A stretch of DNA of 64,000 bases from Pseudomonadota bacterium (GTDB lineage Bacteria > Pseudomonadota > Gammaproteobacteria > Eutrophobiales > Eutrophobiaceae), in NCBI GenBank assembly GCA_038142205.1, contig JAYQJO010000001.1, positions 1,205,415 to 1,269,414 of the forward strand, in the 5' to 3' direction. Below the pieces are notes generated by a model. That model made no database searches. It saw only the letters and a program-made list of their open reading frames with translations, and was not told the DNA's origin. The translations under genes and the position numbers were made by a program. This document shows positions 5,531 to 64,000 of this stretch, piece by piece. Numbering within the stretch: position 1 is the first letter of the stretch; the number at the start of each line of letters is the position of its first letter.

Positions 5531-5532
5531 TA

Positions 5533-43460: not shown

Positions 43461-43490
43461 GCCTTAAAGTAATAACTTTAAGGCTTTTTT
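43461..43490 (+). terminator. Rho-independent terminator after aspC/tRNA-Asn
   Basis: gccttaaag-taataa-ctttaaggc followed by T6. Confidence 0.7.
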
Positions 43491-45559: not shown

Positions 45560-45598
45560 AAATCATTAGTTTGTAGTTCGAACCTGTGCTGGGGAAGC
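45560..45598 (+). repeat. Degenerate direct repeat of the 3' half of tRNA-Asn (anticodon loop through acceptor end): candidate attR-like scar
   Basis: aatcattagtttgtagttcgaacctgtgctggggaagca versus tRNA 43414..43453 aatcactaggtcggcagttcgagcctgtcccggggagcca, about 75-80% identity over ~40 nt. Confidence 0.5.
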
Positions 45599-45651
45599 AT
45601 ATACAACGCTCATGTACTCTGTACGGGCGACATACATGACATTCTCATAAA

Positions 45652-45684
45652 CAAAAAAAGGGTTTCACAATGAAACCCTTTTTT
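45652..45684 (-). terminator. Bidirectional rho-independent terminator downstream of galU
   Basis: A7-gggtttca-caa-tgaaaccc-T6. Confidence 0.7.
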
Positions 45685-45705: not shown

Positions 45706-46587
45706 CTACTTTACTGTTTCGAGATAAGTTTTAAACGCTTCTTTTATATCTGGATCTTTTAATGCATATTCAACTGAAGCCTGCATATAACCTAGTTTCG
45801 AACCACAGTCATATCTTTTTCCTTCAAATTCATAAGCAAAAACAGATTCTTTTTTTAATAATAAACTTATTGCATCGGTAAGCTGTATTTCATTACCCGC
45901 ACCCTTTGGTGTTTCTTCTAAGCAAGAAAATATTTCGGGACTCAACACATATCTTCCTACGACACCTAAAGTAGAGGGTGCTTTTTTCGGCTCAGGCTTT
46001 TCAACAATACTATTTATGTTAAATAACGACGCATCATCTGTTGATGATGTTTCAACAATGCCGTATTTAGAGGTATCTTCTTTGGGTACATTTTCAACAG
46101 CAATAACACTTTTTATTTGTTGTTGATATTTTTCAACCATCTGTTTGGTAACACCCCGCCCACCATCATCAATTAAATCATCAGGTAAAATGACAGCAAA
46201 TGGTGAATTACCTACAACAGGTTTTGCACATAAAACAGCATGACCCAGTCCTAATGGTTCAGCTTGACGTATGTATATACAAGTAACATTACCAGGAATT
46301 ATCTCTCTAACAATTTGAAGTTTTTCTGTTTTTCTTTTTTTCTCTAACTCTGTCTCAAGCTCATAAGCTTTATCAAAGTGATCTGTAATCGAGCGCTTTG
46401 TTCTACCTGTGATAAAGATGAGTTCTGTCATTCCTGCAGCAATCGCTTCTTCAGCAGCATACTGAATAAGGGGTTTATCAACTATAGGAAGCATTTCTTT
46501 TGGATTTGCTTTTGTAGCGGGCAAAAAACGGGTACCCATGCCTGCTACAGGGAAAACTGCTTTAGTTATTTTTTTCATACGTTTCAT
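45706..46587 (-). CDS. galU: UTP--glucose-1-phosphate uridylyltransferase
   Basis: 293 aa with [34 protein letters not shown] signature. Confidence 0.9.
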
Positions 46588-46690
46588 TTACTGACATGAA
46601 TCACGTTATCGCAATCTGTTTTTAATGATGGTATTAAAATACAAAGAGACTCTTTTAGTTTGTTATCGTCAACTTTATTAATAGAATCTA

Positions 46691-48429
46691 TTATTTCTTA
46701 ACTTTAGCTTCTATTTCTTTCAAATTAATTACAGGGTGTTTTGCGAGTAAAATTTTACTATGCGATGTTTGTTCTCGGCACTCATCATCGTAAAATAATT
46801 CTTCATACATTTTCTCGCCTGGACGCAAGCCGGAATATTCAATATTTATATCGCTATATGGAAGCAAGCCGGAAAGTTTAATCATTTGTTCAGCAAGATA
46901 ATTAATTTTTACCGGCATTCCCATATCTAAAACATAAATTTCACTACCGCTCCCCATAGCATTTGCTTGCAATATTAACTGGCATGCCTCAGGTATAGTC
47001 ATGAAATAACGTGTTATATCTTTATGAGTAACAGTTACAGGCCCACCTTTTCTTATTTGTTCTTTAAACAATGGTACAACACTACCTTCTGAGTCTAAAA
47101 CATTACCAAAACGTACTGTTATAAAATGCGTACTACTGCTTTCACTAATAATTTCCGTATATATTTCAGCTATACGCTTTGTGGCTCCTAAAATATTAGT
47201 TGGTTTAACTGCTTTATCAGTAGAAATTAAAACAAAACTTTCACAACTGTTTTCGTGAGCCGCTATAGCTATATTCTTTGTTCCTAATATATTATTTCTA
47301 ACAGCTTCACGAGGTTGTCTTTCTAGAATCGGAACATGCTTATATGCCGCCGCATGAAAAATAATATCTGGCTGATACTGTTTAATAGTTTTATCGACTA
47401 AAGTTTTATCGCACAAATCACCCAGTATAAATTCGCATTTTACATTTAATTGTGACAAAGACTGTTCAGTCCGATACAAGTTAAATTCATTTATTTCAAA
47501 TACTATTAATAAAGATGGTTCTAATGAAGCAATTTGTTTACATAGCTCAGAACCAATAGACCCCCTCCTCCAGTTACTAAAATCACTTTATTACTAGTAC
47601 TAGTTTGTATCTCCTGCCAATCTAATTCAACCTTTTCTCTGCCCAATAAATCCTCAATAGATACCTCACGAAGTTTAGAAAGAGCTTCTTGACTTCCAAC
47701 CATATCTTGAATACTTGGTAGTGTTCGAATTGGCAGACCCGTTCCCTCACATATATTCACTATTTTCTGCATTTGAATACTTGTTGCAGATGGAATCGCT
47801 ATTATTATTAGATTTATATCAAATTGCTGTATAAATTCTTGTACATGTTTAATCTCTCCATAAATTTTTATTCCATGAATTTGCGAACCTTTTAGTGAAA
47901 CATTATCATCTAATATAGCTATGGGCATATAACTACCTTCTCTTAAGCTTTCCCTAATTAGTAATTCTGCAGCTCGCCCAGCACCAATTATTAATACACG
48001 TTTATTATCTATCATTGAATTCATAGATAATCTGCGATCTTTCCATAGGCGATAACCTAATCTAGGAGCGCCAAGTAAAAATATTAGAAATACCGGATAT
48101 AAAATTAGTATAGATCTAGGAACACCATCCAATCGATTAATGTAAAATAAAAAGATAGCTATTATTATTGTCCCTACGAAAGAAGCGCGAAATATATTCC
48201 ATAGATCGGGCAAACTCGCAAAACGCCATAACCCGCGATAAAAACCAAATAATTTTGAAATACCGCCCTGAACAAGAATTATTAGCGGGATTGTCCATAG
48301 CATTGGGCTCCAAACATCGATTAACTGATAATCAAAGTTAAATCTTGCCATCCAGGCTAATAACCATGCGAACACGATCATTATTAAATCGTGAATAATT
48401 GCTAAGTGACGGTTATTTATACGGGGCAT
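46691..48429 (-). CDS. Membrane-anchored UDP-sugar 4,6-dehydratase / polysaccharide biosynthesis protein (WbpM/CapD/PglF family), frameshifted at C5 run 47561-47565
   Basis: ORF 47521..48429 gives the N-terminal TM region plus the start of a Rossmann motif (VILVTGGGG). One extra G restores GSIGSELCKQIASLEP... into ORF 46691..47479 (HAAAYKHVP etc.). Confidence 0.8.
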
Positions 48430-48489
48430 AACTTATTTAAAATATATATATTAATTAATCAAAAAACTATATCAAACTTTACCATACGG

Positions 48490-49704
48490 CTATTTTGAAC
48501 ATGCATGCAAAAATACTTTATGCACTGCTTTAGCCACATCCATTAAGTCGTTTTCAGTATTTCCAGGATGTATTAAAAAAGCAAGGCTGGATCTACCCAA
48601 TTTGTTAGCATTATGCAGAGATGAATAATCTTTTAGTTTTAAATTTTCAAATGCCGTTTCACGATATACTTCCGGACAACTACCAATAAAGCAAGGAACT
48701 CCTTCTGCGCATATTGCACCTAGAATTTTTAATTGATCCCAATTCGATTTTAAATAACTTGACTCTATAAAAGCATATAAACGGTAATAGCTATGCTTAA
48801 TATCTTCTGGTGGATTAGGTATAGTTAGAGCGGGGATATTTTGCAGTTCTGAAGTTAAAAGCTCAGCATTACGTCTACGTTGCACCAACCATTGTGGTAA
48901 TTTTTTTAGTTGAATACGTCCTATAGCAGCCTGCATTTCTGTCATTCTATAATTTGAACCAAAAGAATCATGCAGCCATCTAAACCCAATTTTTTCAGCT
49001 GGGCTATGGCACAAAGTATAGTTTTTTCCATGATCTTTATATGACCATGCCCGTTCAAATACTTCTTGATTGTTGGTTAGCAACATTCCACCTTCCCCGC
49101 CAGTAGACATAATCTTGTCTTGGCAAAAAGAGTATGCTGCTACATCTCCAAATGAGCCTACTACTCTATTCTTATAGGTCGCTCCATGAGCTTGTGCACA
49201 ATCTTCAACAATATATAAATTTTTCTGCTTGGCATATTCAGATATTGATGTCATGTCACAAGGCCACCCACCAAGATGTACAACGATTATTCCTTTTGTT
49301 CTTTCAGTTAATACTTCACTAATTGTCTCAACACTAATATTTTGTGAAACAGGTTCTATATCTGCAAAAACAGGTGTAGCACCGCATGCCACTACAGAAC
49401 TTGCAGATGCAAAAAATGTTCGACTTGGCACAATAACTTCATCACCCTTTCCAATTCCTAATGAACGAAGAGCTAACTCAAGCGCTACTGTTCCATTTGC
49501 AACGGCAACAGCATATTCAACGCCTACATGACTTGCATATTCTTTTTCAAATGTTTTGCATTCTGTACCTGTCCAATAATTAACTTTTCCACTGCGTAAT
49601 ACATTCATCGCAGCGTCGACTTCATCTTTTTCGTAGACAGGCCAAGGTGGGTTTTGATTGACCCTTATTTTTTCACCACCATCAATTGCTAATAAATTAC
49701 TCAT
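48490..49704 (-). CDS. DegT/DnrJ/EryC1/StrS-family PLP-dependent sugar aminotransferase
   Basis: 404 aa; DegT-family sugar aminotransferase signature (the PLP-binding Lys region is not pinned to a specific residue). Confidence 0.75.
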   Translation of the reverse strand: MSNLLAIDGGEKIRVNQNPPWPVYEKDEVDAAMNVLRSGKVNYWTGTECKTFEKEYASHVGVEYAVAVANGTVALELALRSLGIGKGDEVIVPSRTFFASASSVVACGATPVFADIEPVSQNISVETISEVLTERTKGIIVVHLGGWPCDMTSISEYAKQKNLYIVEDCAQAHGATYKNRVVGSFGDVAAYSFCQDKIMSTGGEGGMLLTNNQEVFERAWSYKDHGKNYTLCHSPAEKIGFRWLHDSFGSNYRMTEMQAAIGRIQLKKLPQWLVQRRRNAELLTSELQNIPALTIPNPPEDIKHSYYRLYAFIESSYLKSNWDQLKILGAICAEGVPCFIGSCPEVYRETAFENLKLKDYSSLHNANKLGRSSLAFLIHPGNTENDLMDVAKAVHKVFLHACSK

Positions 49705-50350
49705 TATTTTTTACTACACGAGCAGGTGAACCAACAACAATTTTACCAGATGGAACATCATTAATCACGGTAGAGTTAGCGCCAACTACTGAACCCTCTC
49801 CGACTCTCACCCCTGATAAAATAACAGAGCCTGCACCTATAAATACGTTTTTTTCTACAACAACTCCGCCACACAGTGTAGAACTTGGCGCGACATGTAC
49901 ACCACTATGAATTTCACAATCATGCTCGATTACTGCATTAGAATTTATAATCACGTTTTTATTAATTTTAACGTCAGGATTAATTACAGCTGAAGGCATT
50001 ATCATTGAACCACATTCAATATCTACATCACTACTAACATATGCACTTGGGTGCACAACTGTAGTCAATTTAAAATCATTTTTAACAAGCCACTCTGCAA
50101 CTTTCAACCTTACTTGATTATTTCCTATTGCTACAATACCAGCATCCACATTATTACGCTGAGCAATCAACTCTTCTCTCCCACCAATACACTTATAGTT
50201 GAGAACCTTAGTGTTCCTTGTGTTTTCATTATCATCAATTAAAAATGTTAACTCAAACTCGTCAATACTACGTACAGAATCTGCAACGATTTTTGCATGA
50301 CCACCAGCCCCATAAATAAATATCGATAACTTATTCATCTGCTGACTCAT
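49697..50350 (-). CDS. Sugar N-acetyltransferase (left-handed beta-helix hexapeptide repeat; PglD/NeuD family)
   Basis: Rossmann-like N-terminus IFIYGAGGHAK followed by hexapeptide repeats. The start was chosen at an internal Met to avoid overlapping the upstream gene; the track ORF extends to 50380. Confidence 0.65.
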   Translation of the reverse strand: MSQQMNKLSIFIYGAGGHAKIVADSVRSIDEFELTFLIDDNENTRNTKVLNYKCIGGREELIAQRNNVDAGIVAIGNNQVRLKVAEWLVKNDFKLTTVVHPSAYVSSDVDIECGSMIMPSAVINPDVKINKNVIINSNAVIEHDCEIHSGVHVAPSSTLCGGVVVEKNVFIGAGSVILSGVRVGEGSVVGANSTVINDVPSGKIVVGSPARVVKNNE

Positions 50351-50922
50351 TCCCTTTGAATTTTGGCATAGTATTATCACTTGAATTATTCACACCGCTT
50401 CCTTTTACCACATTTAAAACAGTCAATATTAAAATTTTAACATCAAATAAAAGGTTATGATTATTAACATAATACACATCCAATCTTAATCGTTCGCCCC
50501 AAGATGTATCATTTCTTCCATTAACCTGAGCCCAACCCGTTATCCCGGGCTTAACATCATGTCGACGACTTTGTTCTTTATTATATAACTCTAAATACTC
50601 AATCAATAATGGTCTCGGGCCTACAATACTCATTTCTCCTTTGATCACATTATAGAGCTGAGGAAATTCATCAATACTAAATTTACGTATAAATTGACCT
50701 AGTGGAGTCATTCTTTCCATATCAGGTAGTAGCTCACCATTGGCATCTCTGAGATCTTTCATAGTTCTAAACTTATATAATTTAAAAGGCTTTGCATGCT
50801 TCCCTGGTCTTTTTGAACAAACAAGATTGGAGAGCCGAGAGACACTAAGATTAATAAAGCAGCAACAACCAAAACAGGAAAGAGAAGTATCAATAGTGAT
50901 ACAGATAAAACCAGATCAAATA
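50331..50922 (-). CDS. Undecaprenyl-phosphate sugar phosphotransferase (PglC/WbaP C-terminal domain family; initiating transferase), frameshifted at T5 run 50810-50814
   Basis: The track ORF holds the catalytic domain (PRPLLIEYLELYNKEQ, VKPGITGWAQV). The upstream frame encodes the PglC-type N-terminus VKRIFDLVLSVSLLILLFPVLVVAALLILVSLGSPILFVQK from a GTG start. Confidence 0.75.
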
Positions 50923-50928
50923 TTCTTT

Positions 50929-52047
50929 TCACAGCTTCATTACTTTTATTATTTCATTATTAATCAGTCTGACATCAAACTTACTTTCTACAATTTCACG
51001 GCTAACCTTACCCATAGTTGAAGCTAAATTATTTGATGAAATGAAGTTTTCCATTGCAATAACTAACTCATCAACATTTTTGACTGTTATCAAAAACCCG
51101 TTCTTTTTATCAATAACTGTTTCACGGCAGCCCGGAACATCTGTTGTAATAATAGCTCGTCCCATTGACATTGCTTCCAAAACTGATCTTGGCATTCCTT
51201 CACGATAAGAGGGCAATACAACTACAGATGCATCTCTTACATAGGGCCTTACATCATCCGTCTCTCCTAAATAATCAATCATATTTTTATCCTTTAATTT
51301 TTTCAAATCATCAAAAGATATTGCAGACGGGTTATCATCGAGAGGCCCTAGAACCTTAAACTCAATCTTAGGGTACTTTTTTTTTCAATCTTCTTGCTGC
51401 TTCTATATACTCCATTATTCCCTTATCTTTTAATAGCCTGGCGACCATCAAAAACACTAGATCTCGTTGTGGTAATGGCTGAATCTGAAAAAAGTCTGTA
51501 TCAACACCAGAGCCATTAGTGATCGAGTAGCTCGACTCTTTCTTAATAATTTTATTACTAATAAAAACATCCCTATCATCTTTATTTTGAAAAAAACATT
51601 CGTATTATTTTTCAATGCCAGCTTATACATTCTTGGCACTATTAGTTTTACTACTTTTTGTCTAAATGTTCTTGCTTTAAGAAAAGTACTACCTAAGCCT
51701 GTTATTAATGCATATTGACGCTTCACTCTACAAATTTTTGCTGCAATCAATCCATATACAACTGGTTTAATTGTATAACCGACAACAATATCTGGCTTAA
51801 TTTTTAAAATTAATTTAATAAACCAAATAATTAAGACTAAATCCTTAAATGGATTAATCCCCGTCCGCTCTAATGGTAATGAGTAGTAATGACTTCCCCT
51901 ATTATTAAACCACTCACTTACCTGCCTATCTTTCCCACCTGCGCATGCGAACACATCATGCTTTCGATTCAATAATTCATCTATCAGATTACCTCTAAAA
52001 TTGATGAGTGAACGAGGCCAACTTCCAATAATTAATATTCTTGACAC
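50929..52047 (-). CDS. Glycosyltransferase family 1/4 (GT-B fold), carrying two homopolymer frameshifts (T9 at 51377-51385; A7 at 51590-51596)
   Basis: ORF 51457..52047 is the N-domain. A third frame gives GSGVDTDFFQIQPLPQRDLVFLMVARLLKDKGIMEYIEAARRLKKK. ORF 50929..51306 holds the EGMPRSVLEAMSMGRAIITTDVPG C-domain motif. Confidence 0.7.
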
Positions 52048-52137
52048 AGTTAATTAATTTTAATTTTCATATTCAATAGAACACTTGAATATGTGCTTTT
52101 AAACAATGAATAGTTTACTAAAATTGTACTTATTACA

Positions 52138-52865
52138 TTAAGTTGGTCTGCATACTAATATGAATGACTGAGCAAATTTTTCTGGTATTTTTAAAAACCT
52201 GCATATTTTTTCAATGGGGATTATTAGCTTTGATGCTAATAAACCTAGCCATGGACCTGTCCTAGGATAAAAACTATAAAACATTACTTTTTCTATTTTA
52301 AAACCAGATTCTTTCAACTCAGTTTCAATGCAGCTTAAACTCATCGTGTTTGCTATATTTTTATTCTTTATTTTGTTTCTAATTCTATAAACCATGCCAA
52401 GCGGACTATCAGAATTAACATGTACATTAATCACCAAATACCCATTTTTGTTGATCATATTATACATTTCATTCAAAACATCGAGCCTTAACTGTTTTTG
52501 AGCATTTAAGAAAAACGAAATGCAGTTATTACATCAAATTTTTCATTCAAACTATTTGAAGTAATGTCTTGCTTTAGAAGCTTAGAATTGACGCAGTTAG
52601 CCTTCGAGATCTCAAGCATACTATCAGAAACATCAACTCCACACGTATCATCAAAATAACTTTCAGCTAATTTTATAATTCGACCAGTACCACAAGCAAA
52701 ATCTAAATATTTCACTTTATTTTCGCTTGAAATTTTTTCAAAGATATTTTCTAAAAGAGGCTTTTCTAATAAAGACCACTGTGAACCATAAAATCCTACC
52801 TTATAAGTTTCTGAGTAGAATTTTCCATACCCATCACTAGAGTGGCTTTCTCGATAATCTTGCAT
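52138..52865 (-). CDS. Class I SAM-dependent methyltransferase, frameshifted at A5 run 52511-52515
   Basis: N-terminal ORF has motif I LDFACGTGR. One added base joins ...AFRFFLNAQKQLRLDVLNEMYNMINKNGYLVI to the C-terminal ORF. Confidence 0.7.
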
Positions 52866-52902
52866 ATAACTAACCTGATAAAATTTAAATAGACTTCAGT
52901 TA

Positions 52903-54033
52903 TTAAGTAGAAAACAAACTTCTGTATGTTTGGTCATATGATTCTAGACATTTACTCCAGCCAAAATTTTCTTCAACTCTAATACGACTATTATTAGCCA
53001 TCTTCTCCCTAAGTTGCTTATCATTGCCCAAACGAACAATTGCATTACATATTTGTTCTGGGTTTTTAGAGTCCACCAGAATCCCATTAAAGTCATTAAT
53101 AACAGCTTCTGGATTACCACCTACTTTAGTTGCTATAACTGGGAGGCAATTACTCATCATTTCAAGAATACTGTTGGAAAAACCTTCTTCATGTGAACAT
53201 AACAACCCGATATCAGCTGCTTCTAAATACTCAGTCACATTGTTTTGTGGACCAAACCAACGAACATTATTTATTAAATTAAGTTCCCTTGTTTTTTCTC
53301 TAAGCATCAAGCCATAGCCATCATCTCTTCCCACACATAATACTTCCCAATTCTGTTTAATTTTACCCTTTAATTTGACCAGCGCATTTAACAAGTCCAT
53401 ATGCCCTTTGTATGTCATTAAGTTTGCTACCACTACTATTACCAAGCTATCTTGACTGATTTTAAGTTCATCTCTTTGCCTTATTTTAACTTCACTTGTA
53501 ACTCTATCTCTCAGAGTTACACCGTTATATATAAGACCTAACTTATGCTCAGGAACATTCTCTTTCTTTAATTGTTCTAGCACACAATTTGAATTACCTA
53601 ACATAAAATCAATTTTATTGTGCAACCAATATTCTAGTTTTTTTAGCAATTTATATTTACTTTGATAATTGTTAAGACATCTTCTGCTCATCACTCGTTT
53701 ACTACCAGGGAAAAATAAAGAACATAGTCCCCCTACTAAATAAGCTTCAGGCAAGAAATAATGTGTCACATCCGGTTTTATTTTATGAATATAAAAGAAT
53801 AATTTTGAAAAGTTTGTAAGTAAATTAAGAGCTTTATTGGTTTTAATAGTACCAGTTAACATCGTCACATCAGCAGTTAAATATTTACTTTTCTGAACCT
53901 CATTTCCTTTCATAACATACAGATAAACATCATATTTTGACTTATCAAGCATATTTGATAGATGTATCAAATGATTTTCAGTGCCACCTATTCCCAGTTG
54001 ATTGATCACGAATAATATTTTTATTTTTTGCAT
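52903..54033 (-). CDS. Glycosyltransferase family 4 (GT1 superfamily)
   Basis: 376 aa; C-terminal EGFSNSILEMMSNCLPVIATKVGGNPE motif. Confidence 0.75.
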   Translation of the reverse strand: MQKIKILFVINQLGIGGTENHLIHLSNMLDKSKYDVYLYVMKGNEVQKSKYLTADVTMLTGTIKTNKALNLLTNFSKLFFYIHKIKPDVTHYFLPEAYLVGGLCSLFFPGSKRVMSRRCLNNYQSKYKLLKKLEYWLHNKIDFMLGNSNCVLEQLKKENVPEHKLGLIYNGVTLRDRVTSEVKIRQRDELKISQDSLVIVVVANLMTYKGHMDLLNALVKLKGKIKQNWEVLCVGRDDGYGLMLREKTRELNLINNVRWFGPQNNVTEYLEAADIGLLCSHEEGFSNSILEMMSNCLPVIATKVGGNPEAVINDFNGILVDSKNPEQICNAIVRLGNDKQLREKMANNSRIRVEENFGWSKCLESYDQTYRSLFST

Positions 54034-54051
54034 TTGATCTATTCTCTGCTA

Positions 54052-54885
54052 CTAATCAACAGTATTATGCTTAAACTTATTGAATAACATATTAATTGCT
54101 GCTTTTTGTTTAAGGCTCTCACCATACTGTTTATTAAAATAACAATATGCAGTCGCATATGAAAACTTGTCAGCCCAACTCATGTCCACATCACATTCTG
54201 ACTTATCTCTATAACCTTTTAAAAATGCTTCTTTTAATGCAGGAAGCTTATTCCATTTCATATGAAAATAGTTCCATACTGGTACTAACCCATTCAAACA
54301 AGAAATCATATTTCCAATATCGATATATATTGGACCTAAATTACTTGTCCTAAATGTTGTGAAGTTATTAGGAGAGGCATCATATATTACGATATTATTC
54401 TCTCCGTTTATATTATTTACACTAATATTCGAAAAACCAAAATCACAATGCATGTATGTCATAGGCAATCTTCTTGTATAACTATCAATGTCATTAACCC
54501 CGCATTTCCTCATTGCTTTGATAAACGGCTCAGAAGGGAACCAGTAATTTCTTTCATTAAGCATCATACTATTGTGCAATGTTGCTAATACGCCTCCTAC
54601 TCTCTCAAATAATGAAACAGCATCTCTTTCTTTAATAAGATCTTTCATGAAAGCAATATATTCTTCTCTTATAGATTTTTCTGATTTTATATTCTCAAAC
54701 TTTACGGTATTTCCATTCTTTTCGAGTGGCTCAGGAAATATAAACGCGAGCTTTTTAGACAAATCAAATATATGCCTCGATTTTATGTACTCCTTATCAG
54801 AGTCAACATCATATTTTTTTATAACCTCATTATCTTTTAGAAATACATTCTTACTTTTATTTAAATATATATTCTTATCTTCCAT
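54052..54885 (-). CDS. Protein-kinase-like fold phosphotransferase (APH/choline-kinase/LPS-kinase-like) embedded in the polysaccharide cluster
   Basis: 277 aa with Brenner catalytic motif HCDFGFSN (HxDxxxxN) and downstream IDIGN (DxG-like metal-binding) motif. Confidence 0.5.
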   Translation of the reverse strand: MEDKNIYLNKSKNVFLKDNEVIKKYDVDSDKEYIKSRHIFDLSKKLAFIFPEPLEKNGNTVKFENIKSEKSIREEYIAFMKDLIKERDAVSLFERVGGVLATLHNSMMLNERNYWFPSEPFIKAMRKCGVNDIDSYTRRLPMTYMHCDFGFSNISVNNINGENNIVIYDASPNNFTTFRTSNLGPIYIDIGNMISCLNGLVPVWNYFHMKWNKLPALKEAFLKGYRDKSECDVDMSWADKFSYATAYCYFNKQYGESLKQKAAINMLFNKFKHNTVD

Positions 54886-55003
54886 ATTTTATACTCTATA
54901 CATCATTTTATTTTCCAATAGACATTTTCTAATTAATAAGAAAAAACATGCAGACTGAATCAATGCAACCACCAACTCAATAATTACTGCACCTACAATT
55001 CCA

Positions 55004-56166
55004 TTATCTGGAACCACCATAAAACAGCCGATAGAAAGCAACAGCAAAGAGAAAAAAACTTACAATCAATTGTGCTTTAAATTGCCTAATCGCGGTTAAC
55101 ACATATACCATGTATAAAACCATATTATTTGCAGCAGCAGCAAACATTATTAATAAAAGCTTGTCTGAATGGCCTGACAATTTGTCTCCATAGATTACTG
55201 AAATAATAAAATCGCCAAAAAAATAGATGAAAAACATTCCTAGCGTACCAATTACCATGCCTGTTATTGCAAGCCTATATAACAACCCCATAAATTCTTT
55301 ACTGTTTTTTTTCATGATAACACTTTGATAATTTAGATAAATAAGGTGTTCCAAATGAAGCTGCAATAAGTGAAGAAGCTACAGAAAAATATACAAGTGC
55401 AGCATAAATACCCAATGTACTTGTGCCATTATAAAAAGCTATAAAATATTTTGAAATATTTGGTAATAAAGAAGAAAAGAAAGCAACTCCACACAGGGGT
55501 AATGCTAAAAAGAAAATTTCTTTTATACTCTCAAGACGACCTTTGAAAAAAAAAATTCAGTACCGAAGGAGATGATAACTCTGTTTTTAATAATACTGCA
55601 TTCAAATCATATAATAATAATATAATCACATGACTAACAATCAACCCCAACGCAATATGAATTAAATTCCCACCTTTATAGATAATTAAAATTGAAATGA
55701 TTACTGAAACAATTGATTTCAATATTAACGATAACCCAACATTGAATAAATCATCGTTCTTTTGAAAAAAACCATAAATAATATCACTTAATGATTCAAA
55801 ACACTTTGCGCCCGCGATTATCAGCAAAACCCAACGCATATGAGCATTATCAATAAAAACAAATGAATAACTTATAATTATAAACAGGGCTGTCAAAGAA
55901 GTGATAAATCGCAAACTATAATAATCCGTGTTGGCATGCTCTGCTTTAGCATCAGATGTTATCACAAGCCTCAAACGCATATTTGTTAACATAAATACAG
56001 GGGCAGAAATAGCAAAAGCTAGTGCGTATATACCTACTGAATCTAAACCTAATACATTTGTAATTAATATTACTATTAACCATGAACTTGCCGCATAGCC
56101 AATATTACCAGCTGTATACCAAAGTGAATTTTTTAGTATTGAATTACTTAATAAACTTCTTAACAT
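55004..56166 (-). CDS. wzx: Wzx-type O-antigen/polysaccharide flippase (MOP/PST family), with at least two frameshifts in A10 (55546-55555) and T8 (55305-55312) runs
   Basis: Hydrophobic N-terminal ORF 55531..56166 and C-terminal ORF 55004..55366. A third frame across 55367..55530 gives membrane-protein-like sequence (LALPLCGVAFFSSLLPNISKYFIAFYNGTSTLGIYAALVYF...). Confidence 0.6.
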
Positions 56167-56218
56167 AAATATTAATACAACTATATTTTAATGCCGCATT
56201 TTCATATAGAAAAAATAT

Positions 56219-58170
56219 TTAACTTATCCACTTTTCATACCAAGATTGAAACATAATAACATTCCATAATTGATGATGACAATTTCTTACGCCAGACTGA
56301 TGATCTTCCCATGCTTTCTTTATTACATTGCTGTCTAACACTCCTTGTTCTTTAATTTTTTCATAATCTAATAAATCCATTGCCCATTTTTTTAAAGGCC
56401 CTCTCAACCATTTATCTAATGGAATACCAAAGCCCATTTTGGGTCGATTTACCAACTCTTCAGGGACATGCTTATACAATACCTGTCTCAATAAATACTT
56501 GCCTTGATTATTTTGTATTTTATATTTGATTGGAATCTGCCAAGCAAAATCAATCAAGTTGTGATTTAAATAGGGAACCCTACTTTCTAAACTAACAGCC
56601 ATCGAAGCTCTGTCTACTTTAACAAGTACGTCATCGGATAAATATTTAACAGTATCGTTATATAACATTTTTTTGGTTGCTGTTAAATTCTTCATGACTT
56701 CATCTTCTACACGGTTATTAACAGTATTATGATTAATCACAATTTTAGAATTAAACCACGTTGAAGTAAGCGATCTATAGAGTTCATCATCACTTTCCAT
56801 ATTTAGTACGCGACCAATTTTATGAATTTTTTCGCCGGCTAATCGCAATTGATAATTTACTGGAATATATTTTGATAAAGTCTTATAAATTGTATCCCAC
56901 TTTTCTGGTGAAACACCTAACAGTATATTCCCAAGAAACATACGTATGCTAGAAGGTAGTTTATTAGCTCTTTCACTAATATTATAGCTATATACATGTC
57001 GGTTGTAGCCGCAAAATAATTCATCAGCCCCATCACCAGATAACGCTACTTTAACTTTTGTTTTAGCTAATTTTGAAACCAAATAAGTAGGGATTTGCGA
57101 AGAATCTGCAAAAGGTTCATCATATATATCGGCTAATAAAGGAATGGTTGCCATTGCGTCGGCAGATGACACTATCATTTCTGTATGATCTGTCTTTAGG
57201 TGCTCAGCTACAGCACGTGCTTGTATCGACTCATCATATCCAACTTCAGAAAAACCCATAGAAAATGTTTTAATAGGGTTTACTGATTGTTTTTGCATCA
57301 AAGCTACAACCAACGATGAATCAATACCTCCAGATAAAAATGCACCTATCGGAACATCAGAAACCATACATGATTTAACTGCACTTTTAAGCCGTATTTC
57401 CAATTCATTAACAAGTTCATTTTCATTGAGGCCAGTGATAGGATTTTGTTCTCCATGTTCAACTACATCTTTAAGGGACCAATATGATTTAACATCAGGT
57501 AGCTTACCTACTGAATTTAAATTAACCTTGCAAAATGAGCCAGACTCTAATTTACGGAAACCTTTGAAAATACAGAATGGAGAAGGGACATAAGAATATT
57601 GAAAAAATCCTGATAGCGATTCAATGTCTAACTCTGGCTTGAAGTCAGGCCAAGCTTTGAAAGCTTTGAGCTCAGATGCAAACATAAAAACACCTTTATA
57701 CCAGCCATAGTACAATGGCTTCTCACCAAGCCTATCCCTACATAAATATAACGTTTTATTTTTTTATCCCATACAGCTATCGCAAACATTCCTATTGTTT
57801 TTTTTATAGTTTTTTCAATCCCCCATTTTGATACACTTTCAATCAATACCTTGGTATCTGAATGGCCATCAAATTCAACACCCTCTGCTGATAATTGCTT
57901 ACGCAGCTCTAAAAAGTTATAGATTTCTCCGTTAAACACCATTACATAGCGACCACATGTTGAGTGAATTGGTTGTCCGCCAGTTTCACTAAGGTCAATA
58001 ATAGAAAGCCTTCTGTGCCCCATTGCAATACTATTATTTTCTCCGCACCATATCCCTATTGCATCTGGTCCACGGTGAGTTAAAGATTTAGCTGATTCTC
58101 TAACAATAGAGTCGACGGGCCGTTCTGGCATTGAGTTTGGGTGGATTAAAAAGCCCGTTAGACCGCACAT
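56219..58170 (-). CDS. Asparagine synthase (glutamine-hydrolysing)-family amidotransferase (AsnB/WbpS-like), frameshifted at T7 run 57759-57765
   Basis: ORF 57628..58170 has the N-terminal Cys2 GATase domain (MCGLTGF...). ORF 56219..57715 has the synthetase PP-loop SGGIDSS. The junction ...FAIAVWDKK/NKTLYLCRDRLGEKPLYYGW is restored by one added base. Confidence 0.8.
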
Positions 58171-58248
58171 GATAATTTTTTTTTCATAGGAATTGATTCT
58201 TAAAAATAACTTTCAGCAGTAGAAAAATATAAATTTCTAGTATTTATA

Positions 58249-59613
58249 TTACTTAGATGATGTAGTACTTATTCTTGAAGCTGCATATAGTAGAATTATC
58301 ACAAACCAAAATAAGGGATGCCTTAAGGTTAGATGTGCCGAAGAGAATATTAATAAAGCAGTTAAAGCAAAAAGACCGTGAAAGTCTTTTTTTAACAAAG
58401 TTAAATAAGCTACCCTACCAGCGAACAGAAAAAATATTAATACGCCAACGATGCCAGCATTGGTTAATAAGTCCAAGTATGTGTTATGAGATTCCATACC
58501 CATAAATGGAGCTTCTATACCTGAGTAGGCACCAGGGCCAAATCCGAATACAGGTGAGTATTTCCACGCTTCAATACTATTTTCATATAAATACAATCGT
58601 GCATTTATCTTCCCTTCCTCACCCCCAGTGACTTTCTTAGTCATACTATCCTTCTTATTCTTATTCTTATTCTTATTCTTATTCTTATTCTTATTCTTAT
58701 CGTCAGCATAAATTCCATCATTTTTAACATCAATTTTTTTAATTATTCCTGATGCGACTTTCGAATACAAAATTCCAGACATATACATTGAGCTATTACC
58801 TGGCCTCTTAAAAATATCATCAGCGAGCATATAAAACATCACGCCTGTTATCAAAACTAGCAAGGGGTAAAGCCAAAAGTAGTTTGTTTTTTTTCTACAT
58901 GATAGATAGGCAATAAACATGATTAAATAAAATACTGCTATTATTTCTACAGCACTACTTAATGCATCCGATCTTATATGCCATCCCATCCAAAATATTA
59001 AGGTTATAAAAATAGCGAATATGATTTTATTTTCCTTAGTTATTTGCCTTATTGCTAAAAATGGCAACAGACAAAATAAAAGGGCTAACTGATTTGGGTT
59101 TTTCGACCAAGCGCTGAAACGTGTAGCATTATGATAAGAAGTTAATCGCAAATTCTGGTACCAGTCAGTACTCAAACTAAAATGCTTTATTGATATCTCA
59201 ATAGAATACGCAACTAATAGTAATGACACAGAAATATATATTAGATATTTTACTATTCTTTCCGCGCTTTCTGAAAAAAAACAAATCCTCGTATAAATTA
59301 ATAAACTTACAAATGCTGCATAACAATAACCGATCGTGCTGTGTAAGACAATTGAGCCTTTAGGTAAATTCAAATACTGGCTCATAAAAACGCCCAACAA
59401 TATTGATGTTAATAATGCCGACCAAAAGTATAAAATCGGCTTTATTTTAACCATCAATTCTTTATAGCCTGCTTTTTGCAGCACTTGATAAAATATGCTG
59501 AAACTTAAAAGTATCATTAATACTTCACTAAGCCCGACAGGAAGATCAAAAAATCTTAAATTAGTTGCAGCAGATAAGAATAGAGCAAGAGCAAAAATAA
59601 AATCAATCATCAT
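58249..59613 (-). CDS. wzy: O-antigen polymerase/ligase-family membrane protein (Wzy_C domain) with an internal (Lys-Asn)8 low-complexity loop
   Basis: 454 aa polytopic protein with Wzy_C-type motif ESHNTYLDLLTNAGIVG in a large loop. The KNKNKNKNKNKNKNKK stretch is encoded by the hexanucleotide repeat at 58654..58701. Confidence 0.65.
   Translation of the reverse strand: MMIDFIFALALFLSAATNLRFFDLPVGLSEVLMILLSFSIFYQVLQKAGYKELMVKIKPILYFWSALLTSILLGVFMSQYLNLPKGSIVLHSTIGYCYAAFVSLLIYTRICFFSESAERIVKYLIYISVSLLLVAYSIEISIKHFSLSTDWYQNLRLTSYHNATRFSAWSKNPNQLALLFCLLPFLAIRQITKENKIIFAIFITLIFWMGWHIRSDALSSAVEIIAVFYLIMFIAYLSCRKKTNYFWLYPLLVLITGVMFYMLADDIFKRPGNSSMYMSGILYSKVASGIIKKIDVKNDGIYADDKNKNKNKNKNKNKNKKDSMTKKVTGGEEGKINARLYLYENSIEAWKYSPVFGFGPGAYSGIEAPFMGMESHNTYLDLLTNAGIVGVLIFFLFAGRVAYLTLLKKDFHGLFALTALLIFSSAHLTLRHPLFWFVIILLYAASRISTTSSK
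58654..58701. repeat. Hexanucleotide tandem repeat (CTTATT)7 plus one imperfect unit inside the wzy coding region
   Basis: Read directly; in-frame and encodes (NK)n. Confidence 0.9.
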
Positions 59614-59708
59614 TGTTATGATTTATTAGTCATATTCTAATGAATATCTATAAATAATTTTTATTGTGTTTTTATATAAGTCTATCAACATATTTTATGT
59701 CATTAAAA

Positions 59709-60596
59709 TCATACAAGATACTTAACTTCTGAACCTTCGCCGATTTCTTCTTGCAAAATTAATTTTTCATTTTCTTTTTTCCACAAACTTCCTTGCTCAA
59801 CTTCGATTCCTTTTGATAGCACATTTCGAGATATTGCGACCACTCCTCCTTCTTTTAAATACATTCTTATATTTTCAATCCCTAATCTAATTTGATCATC
59901 TGAAAAATATTGTTTATTTAGAAGGTTACTAACTCTTATCACATCAAATTTATGATGTAGCTTTACATTATATTTGAAACAATCCTGTTCTATTAAAGAA
60001 ATACTTTTGTTGTTACAAACCAGTGGATTAAGTAAAGATATTGTATGTGACTCAACGAAGGAACTACGGAATTTACTTAATTTTAAATAAATACTGGAAA
60101 AAAAATTAGAAAATATGCACCACTTGTGTTCTGAATCAGGCAGCCTTAATCCCAAGCGCCAAACTCTTAAAAGTACAGGACCCCCTGTAGTTGCGCGATA
60201 TTCTTTAAGAAAATATTTTTTATAAACCTTTAATTCTAGAAATTTATCCATGATTGTTACGCTTATTTTTTTTTCCATAAATTCTGTTTGCAGGAACTCC
60301 TGAAGCTCTAGCGTTGTTATTCCATCAGATGCGCCTAAATCCAATATAGTTATAGAATCATAATTGTGTTTTTTTAAGTTACGTAATAAAAGTTTAGATA
60401 CTCCTACTAATCTTCCTGAATTTGTTCTTTTCCATGTATTTTCAATTCGCACGTCGTCTAAGATTTTACTAAATTTTTTAGTCAGCTCAGGAGTCCAATC
60501 TCCTGATTGATACTTTCTCAAACATTCAAAATCAGCATGAAAAACATACCTCCAAATCCTCTGATCAGGGATTGCTCCTTTAGAAATTATTTTCAT
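59709..60596 (-). CDS. Putative SAM-dependent methyltransferase-like protein (FkbM-like?)
   Basis: 295 aa; the only recognisable element is a glycine-rich motif-I-like segment ILDLGASDGITT. Confidence 0.35.
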   Translation of the reverse strand: MKIISKGAIPDQRIWRYVFHADFECLRKYQSGDWTPELTKKFSKILDDVRIENTWKRTNSGRLVGVSKLLLRNLKKHNYDSITILDLGASDGITTLELQEFLQTEFMEKKISVTIMDKFLELKVYKKYFLKEYRATTGGPVLLRVWRLGLRLPDSEHKWCIFSNFFSSIYLKLSKFRSSFVESHTISLLNPLVCNNKSISLIEQDCFKYNVKLHHKFDVIRVSNLLNKQYFSDDQIRLGIENIRMYLKEGGVVAISRNVLSKGIEVEQGSLWKKENEKLILQEEIGEGSEVKYLV

Positions 60597-60608
60597 GAAT
60601 AAAAATGA

Positions 60609-61781
60609 TTAGATATTGTTTAATGTCATTTGTGTTGCATTAATCATTTTTCTTTTGGAATACTTACCTATAATATAATTTCTAATCTCTGATGAATCAT
60701 AATTTCCGGACTTATAATCAGAGACAACTGATGACCATGCACTGGCTAACTCACTTGGGGAACCAATAGGCACAACCTTTCCAAATATAGAAATAATTTC
60801 TTTGACATCACTAACATCTGTCGAAACGCAAGGGTTCCCACAAGACATACCTTCTATAATAACATTTGGGAATCCTTCTGATTTTGAGGTTAGAGTAAGA
60901 ACATCGATCGCATTATAGATTTCAACCATGTTTTCTTGTTTACCTAACCAAGTCACGTTATTTTCTAATCCTAATGACATTGATAAGCTTTGTAATTTTT
61001 CAAGTTCTTTATCCGCCCCTTCTCCAACACATATCAATTTAATATTATTATCATGCTGACAATAAATTGAAGCTGCTTTTAAAAATACGTCATGTGCCTT
61101 TAATGGGTGAATTCTTGCAACCAAGCCAATGATTATCACTTCATCAGCAACACCTATTTTTTTGCGCCAAGACTTGCCCTGTTCTGGCTCATATTTATAT
61201 TCGTCTGTGTCTACGCCATTATTAATAACTGTCCAGTTTTTGCATTTGAACCCTTTATCAATATGAAACTGCATAACTTTATTAGAATTAGCAATAACAT
61301 TTTCAATCATACCAGAGACATATTTACAAAATAAAAATGGAATTTTTACTTTTAAACTGCCGCCAATCCCAGTAGATCTCACACCCCATACTAACTTACA
61401 GTTACTTAAACTTAAGCTTACTAATAATGCAATAAAATTTGTTAACTCTAGCATGCTATAAAGAATAACTGATTCATTCTTTTTAAGTAATTTTCTAAAT
61501 TTAAAAAACCAAAAAACTGGAAATAAAAAATCTAGATACTTTAAAGAACATCTATTCAATAAAGGTATAACATCAATTTCACTATTAACTTCTTTACTTA
61601 GAATCAAAGGATCGCTCTTCAACAAAGTAATGATGGTTACTTTAAATTCTTTCTTGCTTAACCCATTAGCTAATTCTATTAGTTGTCGCTCAGTACCCGC
61701 ATACTCGATACTGCCAATAAAAAATACTAAATTTTTCAGCTCTAAACCTTTCTCTAGTTCTAAATTACATCCAGCGTTCAT
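60609..61781 (-). CDS. Glycosyltransferase family 4
   Basis: 390 aa; C-terminal EGFPNVIIEGMSCGNPCVSTDV motif. Confidence 0.75.
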   Translation of the reverse strand: MNAGCNLELEKGLELKNLVFFIGSIEYAGTERQLIELANGLSKKEFKVTIITLLKSDPLILSKEVNSEIDVIPLLNRCSLKYLDFLFPVFWFFKFRKLLKKNESVILYSMLELTNFIALLVSLSLSNCKLVWGVRSTGIGGSLKVKIPFLFCKYVSGMIENVIANSNKVMQFHIDKGFKCKNWTVINNGVDTDEYKYEPEQGKSWRKKIGVADEVIIIGLVARIHPLKAHDVFLKAASIYCQHDNNIKLICVGEGADKELEKLQSLSMSLGLENNVTWLGKQENMVEIYNAIDVLTLTSKSEGFPNVIIEGMSCGNPCVSTDVSDVKEIISIFGKVVPIGSPSELASAWSSVVSDYKSGNYDSSEIRNYIIGKYSKRKMINATQMTLNNI

Positions 61782-63687
61782 GCCATGCCTGAAAAACGAG
61801 AATATCCCATAAATAATATTGCCAATTCTTTTTGCCAGATAAATGCTCTTGCCATTTTTTACTTATCAATTTTGAATTTAAATATCCTTCTTGTCGAATT
61901 CTATTTTCATTTAACAGACTATCTGCCCACTCTCTTAAAGGACCTCGTAACCAATTATCAAGAGGAACTCCAAAACCCATCTTTGGCCGTTCAAATAATT
62001 CTTGGGGCACGTACTTCTGCAACACTTGCCTCATCAACCATTTACTTTTTCCATTTCTAATCTTGAATTTCAATGGTAATTGCCACGAAAACTCTACTAC
62101 CCTATGGTCAATTAATGGTACTCGTGCTTCTAAAGAATTAGCCATACTGGCTCTATCAATTTTAGTAAGAATATCATCTGGTAAATATGTGTGATAATCT
62201 AAATACTCCATTCTTTCTATATATTCAGGAAGAAAACCTTGTATTGCCTCATCCCAAATAGCCCCTTTCTTTTCTTCACTGTTTAATACCAACTCATTAG
62301 GATTTTTCCAATGACTTAACAGGTATCGATAAAGCTCATCATCATTCTGCAGGAGTATGTCAGGGATTTTTCTAATTTTTTCGCCGAATTTAGAATCAGT
62401 TAAGCATGTTGGCATGGCATTTGAAAAAGCTCTTAAACGACCAGATTTTATGGAATTAATCATTAAAGATAATCCGTTTAAAAATGAATCAGGAAGTCTT
62501 TTTCTACTACGTTGTATTCGTTCAGCTAAAAAGTACCTATCATATCCAGCAAAACACTCATCACCACCGTCTCCAGATAATGCAACAGTGACATGTTGTC
62601 GTGCTAACTCAGAAACTAAAAATGTAGGGATCTGTGACGAATCAGAAAATGGTTCATCGTAAATATCCGGTAATTTTGGAATAACATTAAGCGCATCATC
62701 AGACGATACATATAATTCTGAATGATTTGTTTTTAAATGTTTTGCAATTATCGCTGCATGTTCTGCCTCATTATAGTTACTCTCTTCAAAACCTATGGTG
62801 AATGTGTTTATTGGACTTGATGATTGTGCTTGCATAAGAGCGACAACTAATGACGAATCAATGCCTCCAGAAAGAAAAGCACCCAATGGAACATCTGATA
62901 TCATTCTTCGTCCGACAGCATCTAACAATAATTCATTTAGTTTATTTGTAGCTTCAAAATCATTGAAATCAATTCTATTATAACTAGCTCGTTGAACAAT
63001 ATTAGATAACGACCAGTATGAATTTATTTTTGGTTCTTCTCCTAACCTGACTTTAAGAATACAACCTGCTTCAAGTTTAAATACGTTTTGATAAATAGAC
63101 ATAGGTGCTGGCACATAATTATGTCTCATAAAGCTGGCGAGAGCATCACGGTTTATACACGGACTCCATCCTTTATGTGCTCTTAATGCTTTTAGTTCTG
63201 AACCAAATAGGAAAAGACCATTAAAATTCCCATAGTACAATGGTTTTATTCCCATCCTATCTCTTACTAATGATAGTAAATTTAATTTACTATCCCATAC
63301 AGCAAAAGCAAACATTCCAATTAGTTTAGATACTGTATTTTCAACTCCCCACGTAGCGATAGCTTCAAGAAGTGTTTCTGTATCGGAATCACCTCGAAAA
63401 TTAATACCTAGTGATATTAATTCCTTCCTGATCTCAATGTGATTATAAATTTCACCATTATAAACCAAAACCCAACGGCCATTGTTTGACATCATTGGCT
63501 GCCGTCCAGACTTTGAAAGATCTATGACAGCTAGCCGAGTATGTCCAAGAGTAATCCCTTTATTCTTATCTACCCAAACACCTTGATCATCAGGCCCCCT
63601 CTTTCTAAGGATCTCAGTCATTGCAGAACAATCCGACTGCAATGATTCAATCGAATTATTAGTAAGTATTCCAGTAAGACCACACAT
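61765..63687 (-). CDS. Asparagine synthase (glutamine-hydrolysing)-family amidotransferase, second intact paralogue
   Basis: 640 aa: MCGLTGIL... GATase domain, SGGIDSS PP-loop, colinear with the 56219..58170 gene. Confidence 0.85.
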   Translation of the reverse strand: MCGLTGILTNNSIESLQSDCSAMTEILRKRGPDDQGVWVDKNKGITLGHTRLAVIDLSKSGRQPMMSNNGRWVLVYNGEIYNHIEIRKELISLGINFRGDSDTETLLEAIATWGVENTVSKLIGMFAFAVWDSKLNLLSLVRDRMGIKPLYYGNFNGLFLFGSELKALRAHKGWSPCINRDALASFMRHNYVPAPMSIYQNVFKLEAGCILKVRLGEEPKINSYWSLSNIVQRASYNRIDFNDFEATNKLNELLLDAVGRRMISDVPLGAFLSGGIDSSLVVALMQAQSSSPINTFTIGFEESNYNEAEHAAIIAKHLKTNHSELYVSSDDALNVIPKLPDIYDEPFSDSSQIPTFLVSELARQHVTVALSGDGGDECFAGYDRYFLAERIQRSRKRLPDSFLNGLSLMINSIKSGRLRAFSNAMPTCLTDSKFGEKIRKIPDILLQNDDELYRYLLSHWKNPNELVLNSEEKKGAIWDEAIQGFLPEYIERMEYLDYHTYLPDDILTKIDRASMANSLEARVPLIDHRVVEFSWQLPLKFKIRNGKSKWLMRQVLQKYVPQELFERPKMGFGVPLDNWLRGPLREWADSLLNENRIRQEGYLNSKLISKKWQEHLSGKKNWQYYLWDILVFQAWHERWM

Positions 63688-63806
63688 AATTAGAACCTAA
63701 TCAATAATTAAGGGTTAATTAAAATACTATTAGTAAGTAAGGAATGAAGAAAAAACGGTATTGGAAAAACATTAACTAAGATGGAATTATATTTACTAGA
63801 AAAATC

Positions 63807-64000
63807 TTTACTTAATATTTTGAAAAACGAACTCATTACACCCAATTCCACCTGCACATGTAATCAATTTTAATAATTGAAACTTTTGCATGTGATAAAA
63901 ATTAAATATTTCTTCTGGTTTTGCAACTTCAAAAGGCAAACCACCAACCCAATCAATAACGTCATACCAAGGAGACATACCGCGAACACTACTATAAGAA
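63807..64000 (-). CDS. Partial CDS (C-terminal end only; gene continues beyond position 64000), possibly a methyltransferase-like polysaccharide-modification protein
   Basis: Reverse translation ...SYSSVRGMSPWYDVIDWVGGLPFEVAKPEEIFNIF... ends in a stop near 63807. Confidence 0.3.

Follow-up and report, generated by a model that had tools for sequence, protein, structure and literature searches.

The 64,000-nucleotide stretch analysed here, which we call the window, comes from an uncultured gammaproteobacterium of the Eutrophobiaceae (GenBank assembly GCA_038142205.1, contig JAYQJO010000001.1, positions 1,205,415 to 1,269,414), and its right-hand end is taken up by a polysaccharide gene cluster that reaches from galU to the edge of the window. 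Families were assigned by Pfam, NCBIfam and PDB sequence searches. For genes broken by frameshifts, the reading frame was followed across the breaks (frame path), and lengths are those of the intact orthologues in L085, a 132-kb metagenome contig (JGI 3300082588, Ga0675948_0000484) that was reached through a homologue of the kinase-like protein. In the order of transcription, 5’ to 3’, the cluster holds the following features.

63808..63999, minus strand: class I S-adenosylmethionine (SAM) methyltransferase, C-terminus of 63 codons plus stop, in a frame open to the window edge
61765..63687, minus strand: AsnB2, intact glutamine-dependent amidotransferase, 640 amino acids (Pfam GATase_6/7 and Asn_synthase)
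60609..61781, minus strand: GT4c glycosyltransferase, 390 amino acids (Pfam Glyco_transf_4 and Glycos_transf_1)
59709..60596, minus strand: divergent protein with a class I SAM-methyltransferase fold, 295 amino acids, no Pfam family (AlphaFold and PDB fold matches)
58249..59613, minus strand: Wzy polymerase, 454 amino acids (Pfam Wzy_C, 39.6 against a cut-off of 31.7)
56219..58170, minus strand: AsnB1, broken, 650 amino acids once repaired (two overlapping open reading frames (ORFs) in different frames; comparison with L085)
54886..56166, 3’ end approximate, minus strand: Wzx flippase, broken, 417 amino acids in L085 (Polysacc_synt on the N-terminal piece; frame path)
54052..54885, minus strand: predicted phosphotransferase with a protein-kinase-like fold, 277 amino acids, no Pfam family (HxDxxxxN loop, Mg-binding Asp, N-terminal Lys)
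52903..54033, minus strand: GT4b glycosyltransferase, 376 amino acids (Pfam; 70% identical to L085)
52138..52865, minus strand: class I SAM methyltransferase, broken, 242 amino acids in L085, partner of the kinase-like protein (Pfam, frame path)
50929..52047, minus strand: GT4a glycosyltransferase, broken, 372 amino acids in L085 (Pfam, frame path)
50331..50932, minus strand: small PglC-type phosphoglycosyl transferase, broken, 200 amino acids in L085 (Pfam Bac_transf, frame path)
49697..50380, minus strand: PglD/NeuD-family sugar N-acetyltransferase (PglD_N and Hexapep; TIGR03570, 223 against a cut-off of 161)
48490..49704, minus strand: DegT-family aminotransferase for a uridine diphosphate (UDP)-4-amino sugar (best solved relative 7L7X)
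46691..48429, minus strand: WbpM/PglF-type UDP-N-acetylglucosamine (UDP-GlcNAc) 4,6-dehydratase, membrane-anchored, broken, 605 amino acids in L085 (Pfam, frame path)
45706..46587, minus strand: galU, UTP-glucose-1-phosphate uridylyltransferase (TIGR01099, 381 against a cut-off of 327)
45654-45684, bidirectional: intrinsic terminator hairpin with a 14-bp stem

All ORFs of the cluster lie on the minus strand with near-zero spacing and form a single operon of 16 genes, which is transcribed from the right end of the window towards galU and closed by the hairpin just after it. This hairpin is kept in L085 and was the sole strong intrinsic terminator found for the cluster, whereas a promoter scan returned fewer sites than shuffled sequence did and was uninformative. 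At its other end the operon continues past the right edge of the window; the truncated methyltransferase peptide there shares 68% identity with the end of a gene (6852-7676, Methyltransf_23/11/25) in L082, a public-metagenome locus. A preliminary description of this DNA had reported a unidirectional cluster of about 18 kb downstream of galU. The one-strand layout holds, but galU is the last gene rather than the first, and the cluster runs off the window. The families then listed were largely recovered, except that four GT4 glycosyltransferases become three, the pieces of a broken one having been counted, and that several genes taken to be intact are interrupted. Methyltransferase-fold proteins likewise number three.

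The cluster had also been described as visibly AT-rich, and windowed composition bears this out. Guanine plus cytosine (GC) content is 0.330 over 45706-64000 and 0.390 over 1-45705; the means of 2-kb windows are 0.329 (sd 0.020) for the cluster and 0.391 (sd 0.019) for the remainder of the window, so that GC is not uniform along it. The core of the cluster, 50763-61781, falls to 0.318.

Both a Wzx and a Wzy are encoded, the combination that marks Wzx/Wzy-dependent assembly, and the Polysacc_synt and Wzy_C matches support the earlier proposal of a Wzx/Wzy polysaccharide locus, the product of which would start from an N-acetylated 2,4-diamino-2,4,6-trideoxyhexose. This is an ordinary AT-rich surface-polysaccharide cluster of known type. 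Taken as a whole, the region is probably the 3’ 18 kb of a Wzx/Wzy locus for a surface heteropolysaccharide, either O-antigen or capsule. A point that weighs against the overall reading is that these two products are indistinguishable here, the window holding no Wzz, WaaL or Wza/Wzc gene: Wzz, WaaL and Wza/Wzb/Wzc were unmatched among the scanned cluster proteins, in a scan that took in part of the ORFs of 1-45 kb and, of the cluster, the portion inside the window. If the reading is right, the locus would be one more serotype-type locus among the amidated surface polysaccharides initiated with 2,4-diacetamido-2,4,6-trideoxyglucose (diNAcBac), in an uncultured gammaproteobacterial lineage, and would add little beyond annotation.

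Initiating sugar and assembly of the repeat unit

In the pathway that we propose, the PglF/WbpM-like, Pcryo_0638-like and PglD-like enzymes would convert UDP-GlcNAc to UDP-2,4-diacetamido-2,4,6-trideoxyhexose (diNAcBac, also written QuiNAc4NAc), and the small PglC-type enzyme would place the sugar-1-phosphate onto undecaprenyl phosphate. The three GT4 enzymes, possibly joined by more that are encoded upstream, would extend the repeat unit; the two AsnB-type proteins would turn carboxyls into amides; and the kinase-like protein, its partner methyltransferase and one or two further methyltransferases would add non-sugar decorations. Wzx would then flip the unit and Wzy polymerise it.

The four enzyme types of the diNAcBac pathway lie next to one another in the order pglC-pglD-degT-wbpM across 46691-50932. 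The same four activities are known from Campylobacter jejuni (PglF/PglE/PglD/PglC) and Psychrobacter cryohalolentis (Pcryo_0612/0638/0637), and here they are encoded by consecutive genes. The aminotransferase is close to Pcryo_0638, matching its structure 7L7X over the full length at E 3e-131, and Pcryo_0638 has been shown biochemically to produce UDP-2-acetamido-4-amino-2,4,6-trideoxy-D-glucose (PMC8040287). For the dehydratase, the best PDB match of the L085 orthologue was PglF 5BJU (E 2e-95), and the N-terminal membrane domain of PglF and WbpM is present here as well. The transferase is of the small monotopic PglC type, as in the diNAcBac pathway; its L085 orthologue matched the diNAcBac-1-phosphate transferase 8G1N at E 3e-62, as against 1e-32 for WbaP. 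Among solved structures the acetyltransferase matched PerB, the Neisseria gonorrhoeae PglB-ATD, C. jejuni PglD and VioB, and PerB and PglB-ATD are closer to it than Pcryo_0637 is.

Because of the matches to 7L7X, 8G1N and PglF, together with a score above the cut-off for the NeuD/PglB/VioB family, these data point to a sugar derived from UDP-diNAcBac as the first to be loaded onto undecaprenyl phosphate. Related enzyme sets yield the galacto isomer, as in 2-acetamido-4-amino-2,4,6-trideoxygalactose (AAT) sugars, or N-acyl variants. In this respect the locus differs from the named diNAcBac systems, as the C4 stereochemistry (gluco versus galacto) is not predictable from sequence here. It also differs in destination: those systems build an N- or O-linked protein glycan, whereas the genes here feed a Wzx/Wzy polymer.

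Among the genes for extension and polymerisation, GT4c is 77% identical to the 382-residue GT4 protein of L085, and at its start it shares 17 nt with the end of AsnB2. Within wzy, a perfect hexanucleotide repeat, (AAGAAT)8.2, occupies 58652-58700 and is translated as (KN)8 within a hydrophilic loop. The Wzy of L085 has a non-repetitive stretch at this site that is 9 amino acids shorter, and the tract is a potential in-frame length-variable element.

Amidotransferases and the kinase-like/methyltransferase pair

The preliminary description had recognised two paralogous amidotransferase genes. Two AsnB-type genes are indeed present, although as the sequence stands one is intact and the other broken. 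Their proteins are 48% identical and are therefore, judging by this divergence, old paralogues. Both begin with MCGLTG, which puts the Cys2 nucleophile directly after the Met, and both carry the PP-loop SGGIDSS; Pfam matches were at E 1e-32 to 1e-44 for GATase_6/GATase_7 and at E 1e-114 and 1e-119 for Asn_synthase. With a score of 513.5 against TIGR01536 (cut-off 267.1), AsnB2 is an AsnB-type glutamine-hydrolysing amidotransferase.

Housekeeping asnB was considered and rejected. Against the housekeeping model NF006949, AsnB2 scored 280.5 in three stretches (cut-off 499), and in the comparison with Escherichia coli AsnB (1CT9) only two partial stretches aligned, for 132 bits. The AsnB gene inside the O-antigen cluster of E. 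coli O65 matches AsnB2 along all 640 amino acids, with 41% identity. This was the check that the preliminary description had set for its own proposal, and the outcome is in its favour. The O65 antigen presumably contains 2-acetamido-2-deoxygalacturonamide (GalNAcAN). A second candidate, the WbuX/PseA/WbpG type, was also rejected: it forms a separate family, TIGR03573, which neither AsnB protein matched at E values up to 0.001 in NCBIfam.

The two genes differ in their relation to L085. AsnB1 belongs to the block that is common with L085 and is 77-90% identical to the AsnB there, whereas AsnB2 is 49% identical to it and sits in a variable 5’ module that L085 lacks. The nearest relatives of AsnB2, about 62% identical, lie between GT4 genes in other polysaccharide clusters. 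A glycan-cluster setting was found for all AsnB homologues whose surroundings were inspected: those of L001, L081, L082, L083 and L085 stand among glycosyltransferases or Wzx/Wzy genes, and those of L003, L004, L007, L010, L011 and L021 stand a few kb upstream of wbpM-galU.

In size and architecture both proteins resemble WbpS (Pseudomonas aeruginosa O6), WbqG (E. coli O121) and PGN_1234 (Porphyromonas gingivalis). These are long-form AsnB proteins of about 630-650 amino acids, as here, in which a glutamine amidotransferase domain of the N-terminal-nucleophile type is combined with a PP-loop synthetase domain and extended at the C-terminus; they too lie inside glycan clusters beside GT4 genes, and the best NCBIfam model here, TIGR03108, is that of WbpS and WbqG. 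Genetic evidence ties the long-form clade (WbqG, PGN_1234) to uronamide formation, and WbpS and WbqG have been assigned to TIGR03108 (PMC7468200). GalNAcAN is also the product of a Bordetella locus that includes a putative asparagine synthase (PMC12407052). By analogy with WbpS, WbqG and PGN_1234, and on the strength of genetics at the level of the family, the two glutamine- and ATP-dependent enzymes here would most likely amidate the carboxyls of hexuronates.

Two results weigh against this assignment, and they are at the same time ways in which the locus departs from the three characterised proteins, as is the presence of two diverged copies. The best NCBIfam model for AsnB2, TIGR03108 (eps_aminotran_1), was matched with 605.7, under its cut-off of 816.9, although the generic asparagine-synthase model was matched above its own. 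In addition, the cluster genes that fall inside the window, whose end cuts the cluster, yielded neither a UDP-sugar 6-dehydrogenase nor a uronate epimerase, so that the proposed substrate is unsupported locally; around the nearest homologues of AsnB2 (L082, L083), no uronate-forming dehydrogenase turned up at distances of up to 10 kb. The best solved relative of AsnB2 is 7YLZ, a hydroxyamidotransferase of secondary metabolism, which illustrates the functional breadth of the AsnB family. One or both proteins might then act on some other carboxylate (pyruvyl, lactyl, amino-acid, nonulosonate, or lipid- or peptide-linked), or one might be an asparagine synthetase. We regard this as unlikely in view of the genetic tie of the long-form clade to uronamides, the O65 homologue and the low score against the housekeeping model (280 versus 499). 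Since the cluster is cut by the end of the window, the dehydrogenase could also be encoded upstream or elsewhere. Genes for UDP-sugar dehydrogenases often lie outside such clusters or further upstream.

A second set of genes may decorate the polysaccharide with groups other than sugars. The 277-amino-acid protein belongs to a family with 274 representatives among 1.84 billion proteins, in which H146, D148, N153 and D189 (the HxDxxxxN loop and a downstream Asp) are invariant. The family profile matched TP53RK/Bud32 with an E value of 5e-6, and Pfam APH was matched by 13 of 60 members. A single-sequence AlphaFold model reached a predicted local distance difference test (pLDDT) score of only 36, and the fold assignment therefore rests on the profile searches. 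The Bud32/TP53RK and APH matches and the catalytic loop together identify the protein, at the level of sequence, as a small phosphotransferase with a protein-kinase-like fold.

Members of this family also occur as natural fusions to a GT4 domain (P0171), to Wzx (P0186, P0228, P0271) and to a methyltransferase (P0259). Between the methyltransferase domain of P0259 and the L085 orthologue of the broken cluster methyltransferase, identity is 34% (E 7e-52), and in L087 (6724-9586) the order is wzx, kinase-like gene and a methyltransferase of the same type (34-35%, E 7e-59). Tentatively, the pair may represent a conserved and so far undescribed glycan-decorating module of Wzx/Wzy clusters, in which WbdD-like chemistry is possible. 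Such a module might attach phosphate to a sugar while the repeat unit is lipid-linked, and methylate this phosphate or another position. In E. coli O9a, the bifunctional kinase and methyltransferase WbdD adds a methyl-phosphate cap to the O-antigen (PMC3482155), and the two systems have in common that a polysaccharide cluster pairs a kinase fold with a SAM methyltransferase, P0259 providing the single-chain fusion. Unlike WbdD, the pair has no coiled coil and a small Bud32/APH-like kinase domain, and it belongs to a Wzx/Wzy pathway and not to one with an ATP-binding cassette (ABC) transporter. Membership of the WbdD family was rejected: WbdD was not among the PDB matches of the kinase-like profile or of the methyltransferase, and no sequence similarity was detectable. 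With its natural fusions, the pair offers a tidy candidate for phosphate or methyl-phosphate decoration in Wzy-dependent pathways.

The 295-amino-acid protein, for which about 10 homologues were found among 5.8 billion proteins, has an AlphaFold model with a pLDDT of 90, and every top match among solved structures was a class I SAM methyltransferase. It is the best-conserved cluster protein relative to L085, at 89% identity (83% for galU and 87% for aspC). Given the methyltransferase-fold proteins and the kinase-like protein, the methylated and phosphorylated polymer suggested earlier is plausible.

Frameshifts in the cluster and elsewhere

Six of the sixteen cluster genes (wbpM, pglC, GT4a, the methyltransferase, wzx and AsnB1) are broken, which the preliminary description had overlooked. 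The lesions are nine ±1 frameshifts, five of them deletions and four insertions; eight occur where one base is repeated 5-10 times, and the remaining one is that at GGGGG in wbpM.

~47565, minus strand: wbpM, 1-nt deletion, GGGGG run (GGTGG in L085, GGGG in the window)
~50814, minus strand: pglC, 1-nt deletion, A5 (A6 in L085)
~51596, minus strand: GT4a frameshift 1, deletion at T7 (T8 in L085)
~51384, minus strand: GT4a frameshift 2, insertion, A8/A9 run
~52515, minus strand: methyltransferase, 1-nt deletion, T5 run
~55555 (T10), ~55312 (A8) and ~55058 (T7), minus strand: wzx, three +1 insertions (frame path)
57760-57766, minus strand: AsnB1, 1-nt deletion in A7 (A8 in L085)

At those of these sites that align clearly, the L085 sequence is longer or shorter than the window by exactly one base. 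A tblastn search with the Wzx of L085 returned four frame segments in the window, and repair of AsnB1 gave a clean protein of 650 amino acids. The pieces downstream of the frameshifts are as well conserved relative to L085 as intact genes are. Outside the cluster there are at least six further lesions, all of them 1-nt deletions, in at least five genes.

10559-12060: dmpN, phenol hydroxylase large subunit, one-base frameshift
12350-13416: dmpP, phenol hydroxylase reductase, one-base frameshift
18398-20096: XylR/DmpR-type sigma-54 activator, two frameshifts
27037-27956: catechol 2,3-dioxygenase, one-base frameshift
39065-40011: fcl, GDP-L-fucose synthase, one-base frameshift

No nonsense codon, larger deletion or insertion element was seen among the at least 15 lesions of the window. 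The sequence is deposited at NCBI as a single contig of 2.66 Mb, which suggests a long-read assembly. Because the lesions are only of the ±1 kind, fall mostly in homopolymers, strike unrelated genes without any other type of lesion and without extra divergence, and occur in a single contig, the frameshifts are likely to be homopolymer-length errors of such an assembly. If they are, the broken genes are probably intact in the organism.

Their distribution counts against this explanation in two ways. Lesions number nine in the 18 kb of the cluster and at least six in the 46 kb outside it, and the four insertions all fall within the cluster, wzx alone holding three. The cluster is 2.2 times richer in homopolymers of at least 7 bases, and a higher density of lesions there accords with this, but the density of frameshifts is about 3.7-fold higher and so goes beyond homopolymer density alone. 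The higher density speaks for a rival account in which the frameshifts are real and reflect either decay of the cluster and much of the genome, in a lineage recently restricted to a host or otherwise relaxed, or slipped-strand phase variation at the long A/T tracts of wzx and GT4a, by which the polysaccharide would be switched off or changed. Four cluster lesions do lie in slippage-prone tracts of 8-10 bases (T10, A8, A8/A9) or 7 bases (T7), and those in xylR (19773-19833) and fcl (39706-39724) fall outside runs of at least 4 bases, which is less typical of homopolymer miscalls. Decay fits poorly with a set of at least 11 broken genes of unrelated function across the window that show no nonsense mutations, deletions or insertion sequence (IS) elements and that are conserved like intact ones. 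Phase variation leaves the lesions in A5, T5 and the G5 run and those in the catabolic genes unexplained, and the single long contig again suggests long-read sequencing. We thus consider real frameshifts unlikely overall; that the homopolymer frameshifts of wzx and GT4a act as phase-variation switches is possible, as the weaker reading. Under the assembly-error explanation, the lesions suggest an assembly-wide rate of about 1 indel per 4 kb, and pseudogenes and split genes in the present assembly should be distrusted until the sequence has been polished.

Relatives of the locus, its low GC content and its surroundings

A counterpart of the cluster is found in L085. The 16.3 kb of aligned sequence (61736-45654 of the window) show no rearrangement and are 75.4% identical at the nucleotide level, and the genes of L085 are all intact (GT4, 382 amino acids; 295-amino-acid protein; Wzy, 444; AsnB, 651; Wzx, 417; kinase-like protein, 281; GT4, 397; methyltransferase, 242; GT4, 372; PglC, 200; PglD, 212; DegT, 403; WbpM, 605; GalU, 290). 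In both, aspC and uvrB follow beyond galU, and the proteins are 57-89% identical. L085 is thus collinear from GT4c to galU; it differs in having other genes in place of AsnB2 and the upstream methyltransferase, and in lacking the (KN)8 of Wzy and the DUF2779 gene that lies here between galU and tRNA-Asn.

A scan of genome contigs anchored on galU returned only relatives of at most 83% identity. GalU is 83% identical to its counterparts in L085 and in the two closest species-representative genomes (L001 and L002, where uvrB is 82% identical). These two genomes keep wbpM-galU at the same site, but homologues of degT, pglD, pglC, wzx, wzy and the 277- and 295-amino-acid proteins were not found in them. 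The locus is polymorphic among relatives, with other central genes at the same position, in keeping with the serotype-type variability that had been proposed for it.

The same description had taken the composition as a sign of horizontal acquisition, and here the comparison with L085 speaks otherwise. The cluster and the flanking aspC-uvrB segment are equally diverged from L085 (75.43% and 75.37% nucleotide identity), and neither an integrase nor an IS element nor direct repeats came to light; a search for attachment-site (att)-like repeats around tRNA-Asn and the DUF2779 gene gave none that was convincing. Because of this equal divergence and the failure to find mobility genes or att repeats, we infer that the low GC is a long-standing property, typical of polymorphic loci, and not the mark of a recent import.

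A recently acquired genomic island, with its low GC inherited from a foreign donor, would account for a cluster whose GC lies 6 points under that of the rest of the window, for a tRNA-Asn gene 2.2 kb from the end of the operon, for the different central genes at the same site in the two closest species-representative genomes, and for an AsnB2 module that is missing from L085. It sits badly with the same collinear cluster between the same flanks (galU, aspC, uvrB) in L085, where the equal identity suggests co-inheritance since the two lineages split, and conserved galU and wbpM are themselves low in GC at third codon positions (GC3). With no integrase, IS element or direct repeats to mark an insertion, we judge such an island quite improbable and reject it on the equal divergence of cluster and flank; the low GC is better read as old.

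Next to the operon, the 2.2-kb segment from the 3’ end of tRNA-Asn to the galU terminator (43457-45653) is missing from L085. It contains the DUF2779 gene (43789-45186), which encodes 465 amino acids that weakly match the RecB-like nuclease families UU173 and TM0106, and which is flanked by imperfect 20-nt inverted repeats at 43679-43698 and 45208-45227; no integrase was found with it. The tRNA-Asn was the only feature returned by an Rfam search.

Further from the cluster, the broken fcl gene (39065-40011) stands alone beside uvrB, without an adjacent gmd on the same strand, and may provide the polysaccharide locus nearby with a sugar. At the opposite end of the window, 1587-16949 is dense in genes for aromatic catabolism, among them subunits of Rieske ring-hydroxylating dioxygenases, ferredoxins and a dmp-like phenol hydroxylase with MmoB/DmpM, and the organism appears to be a degrader of aromatic compounds with a GC content of about 39%.

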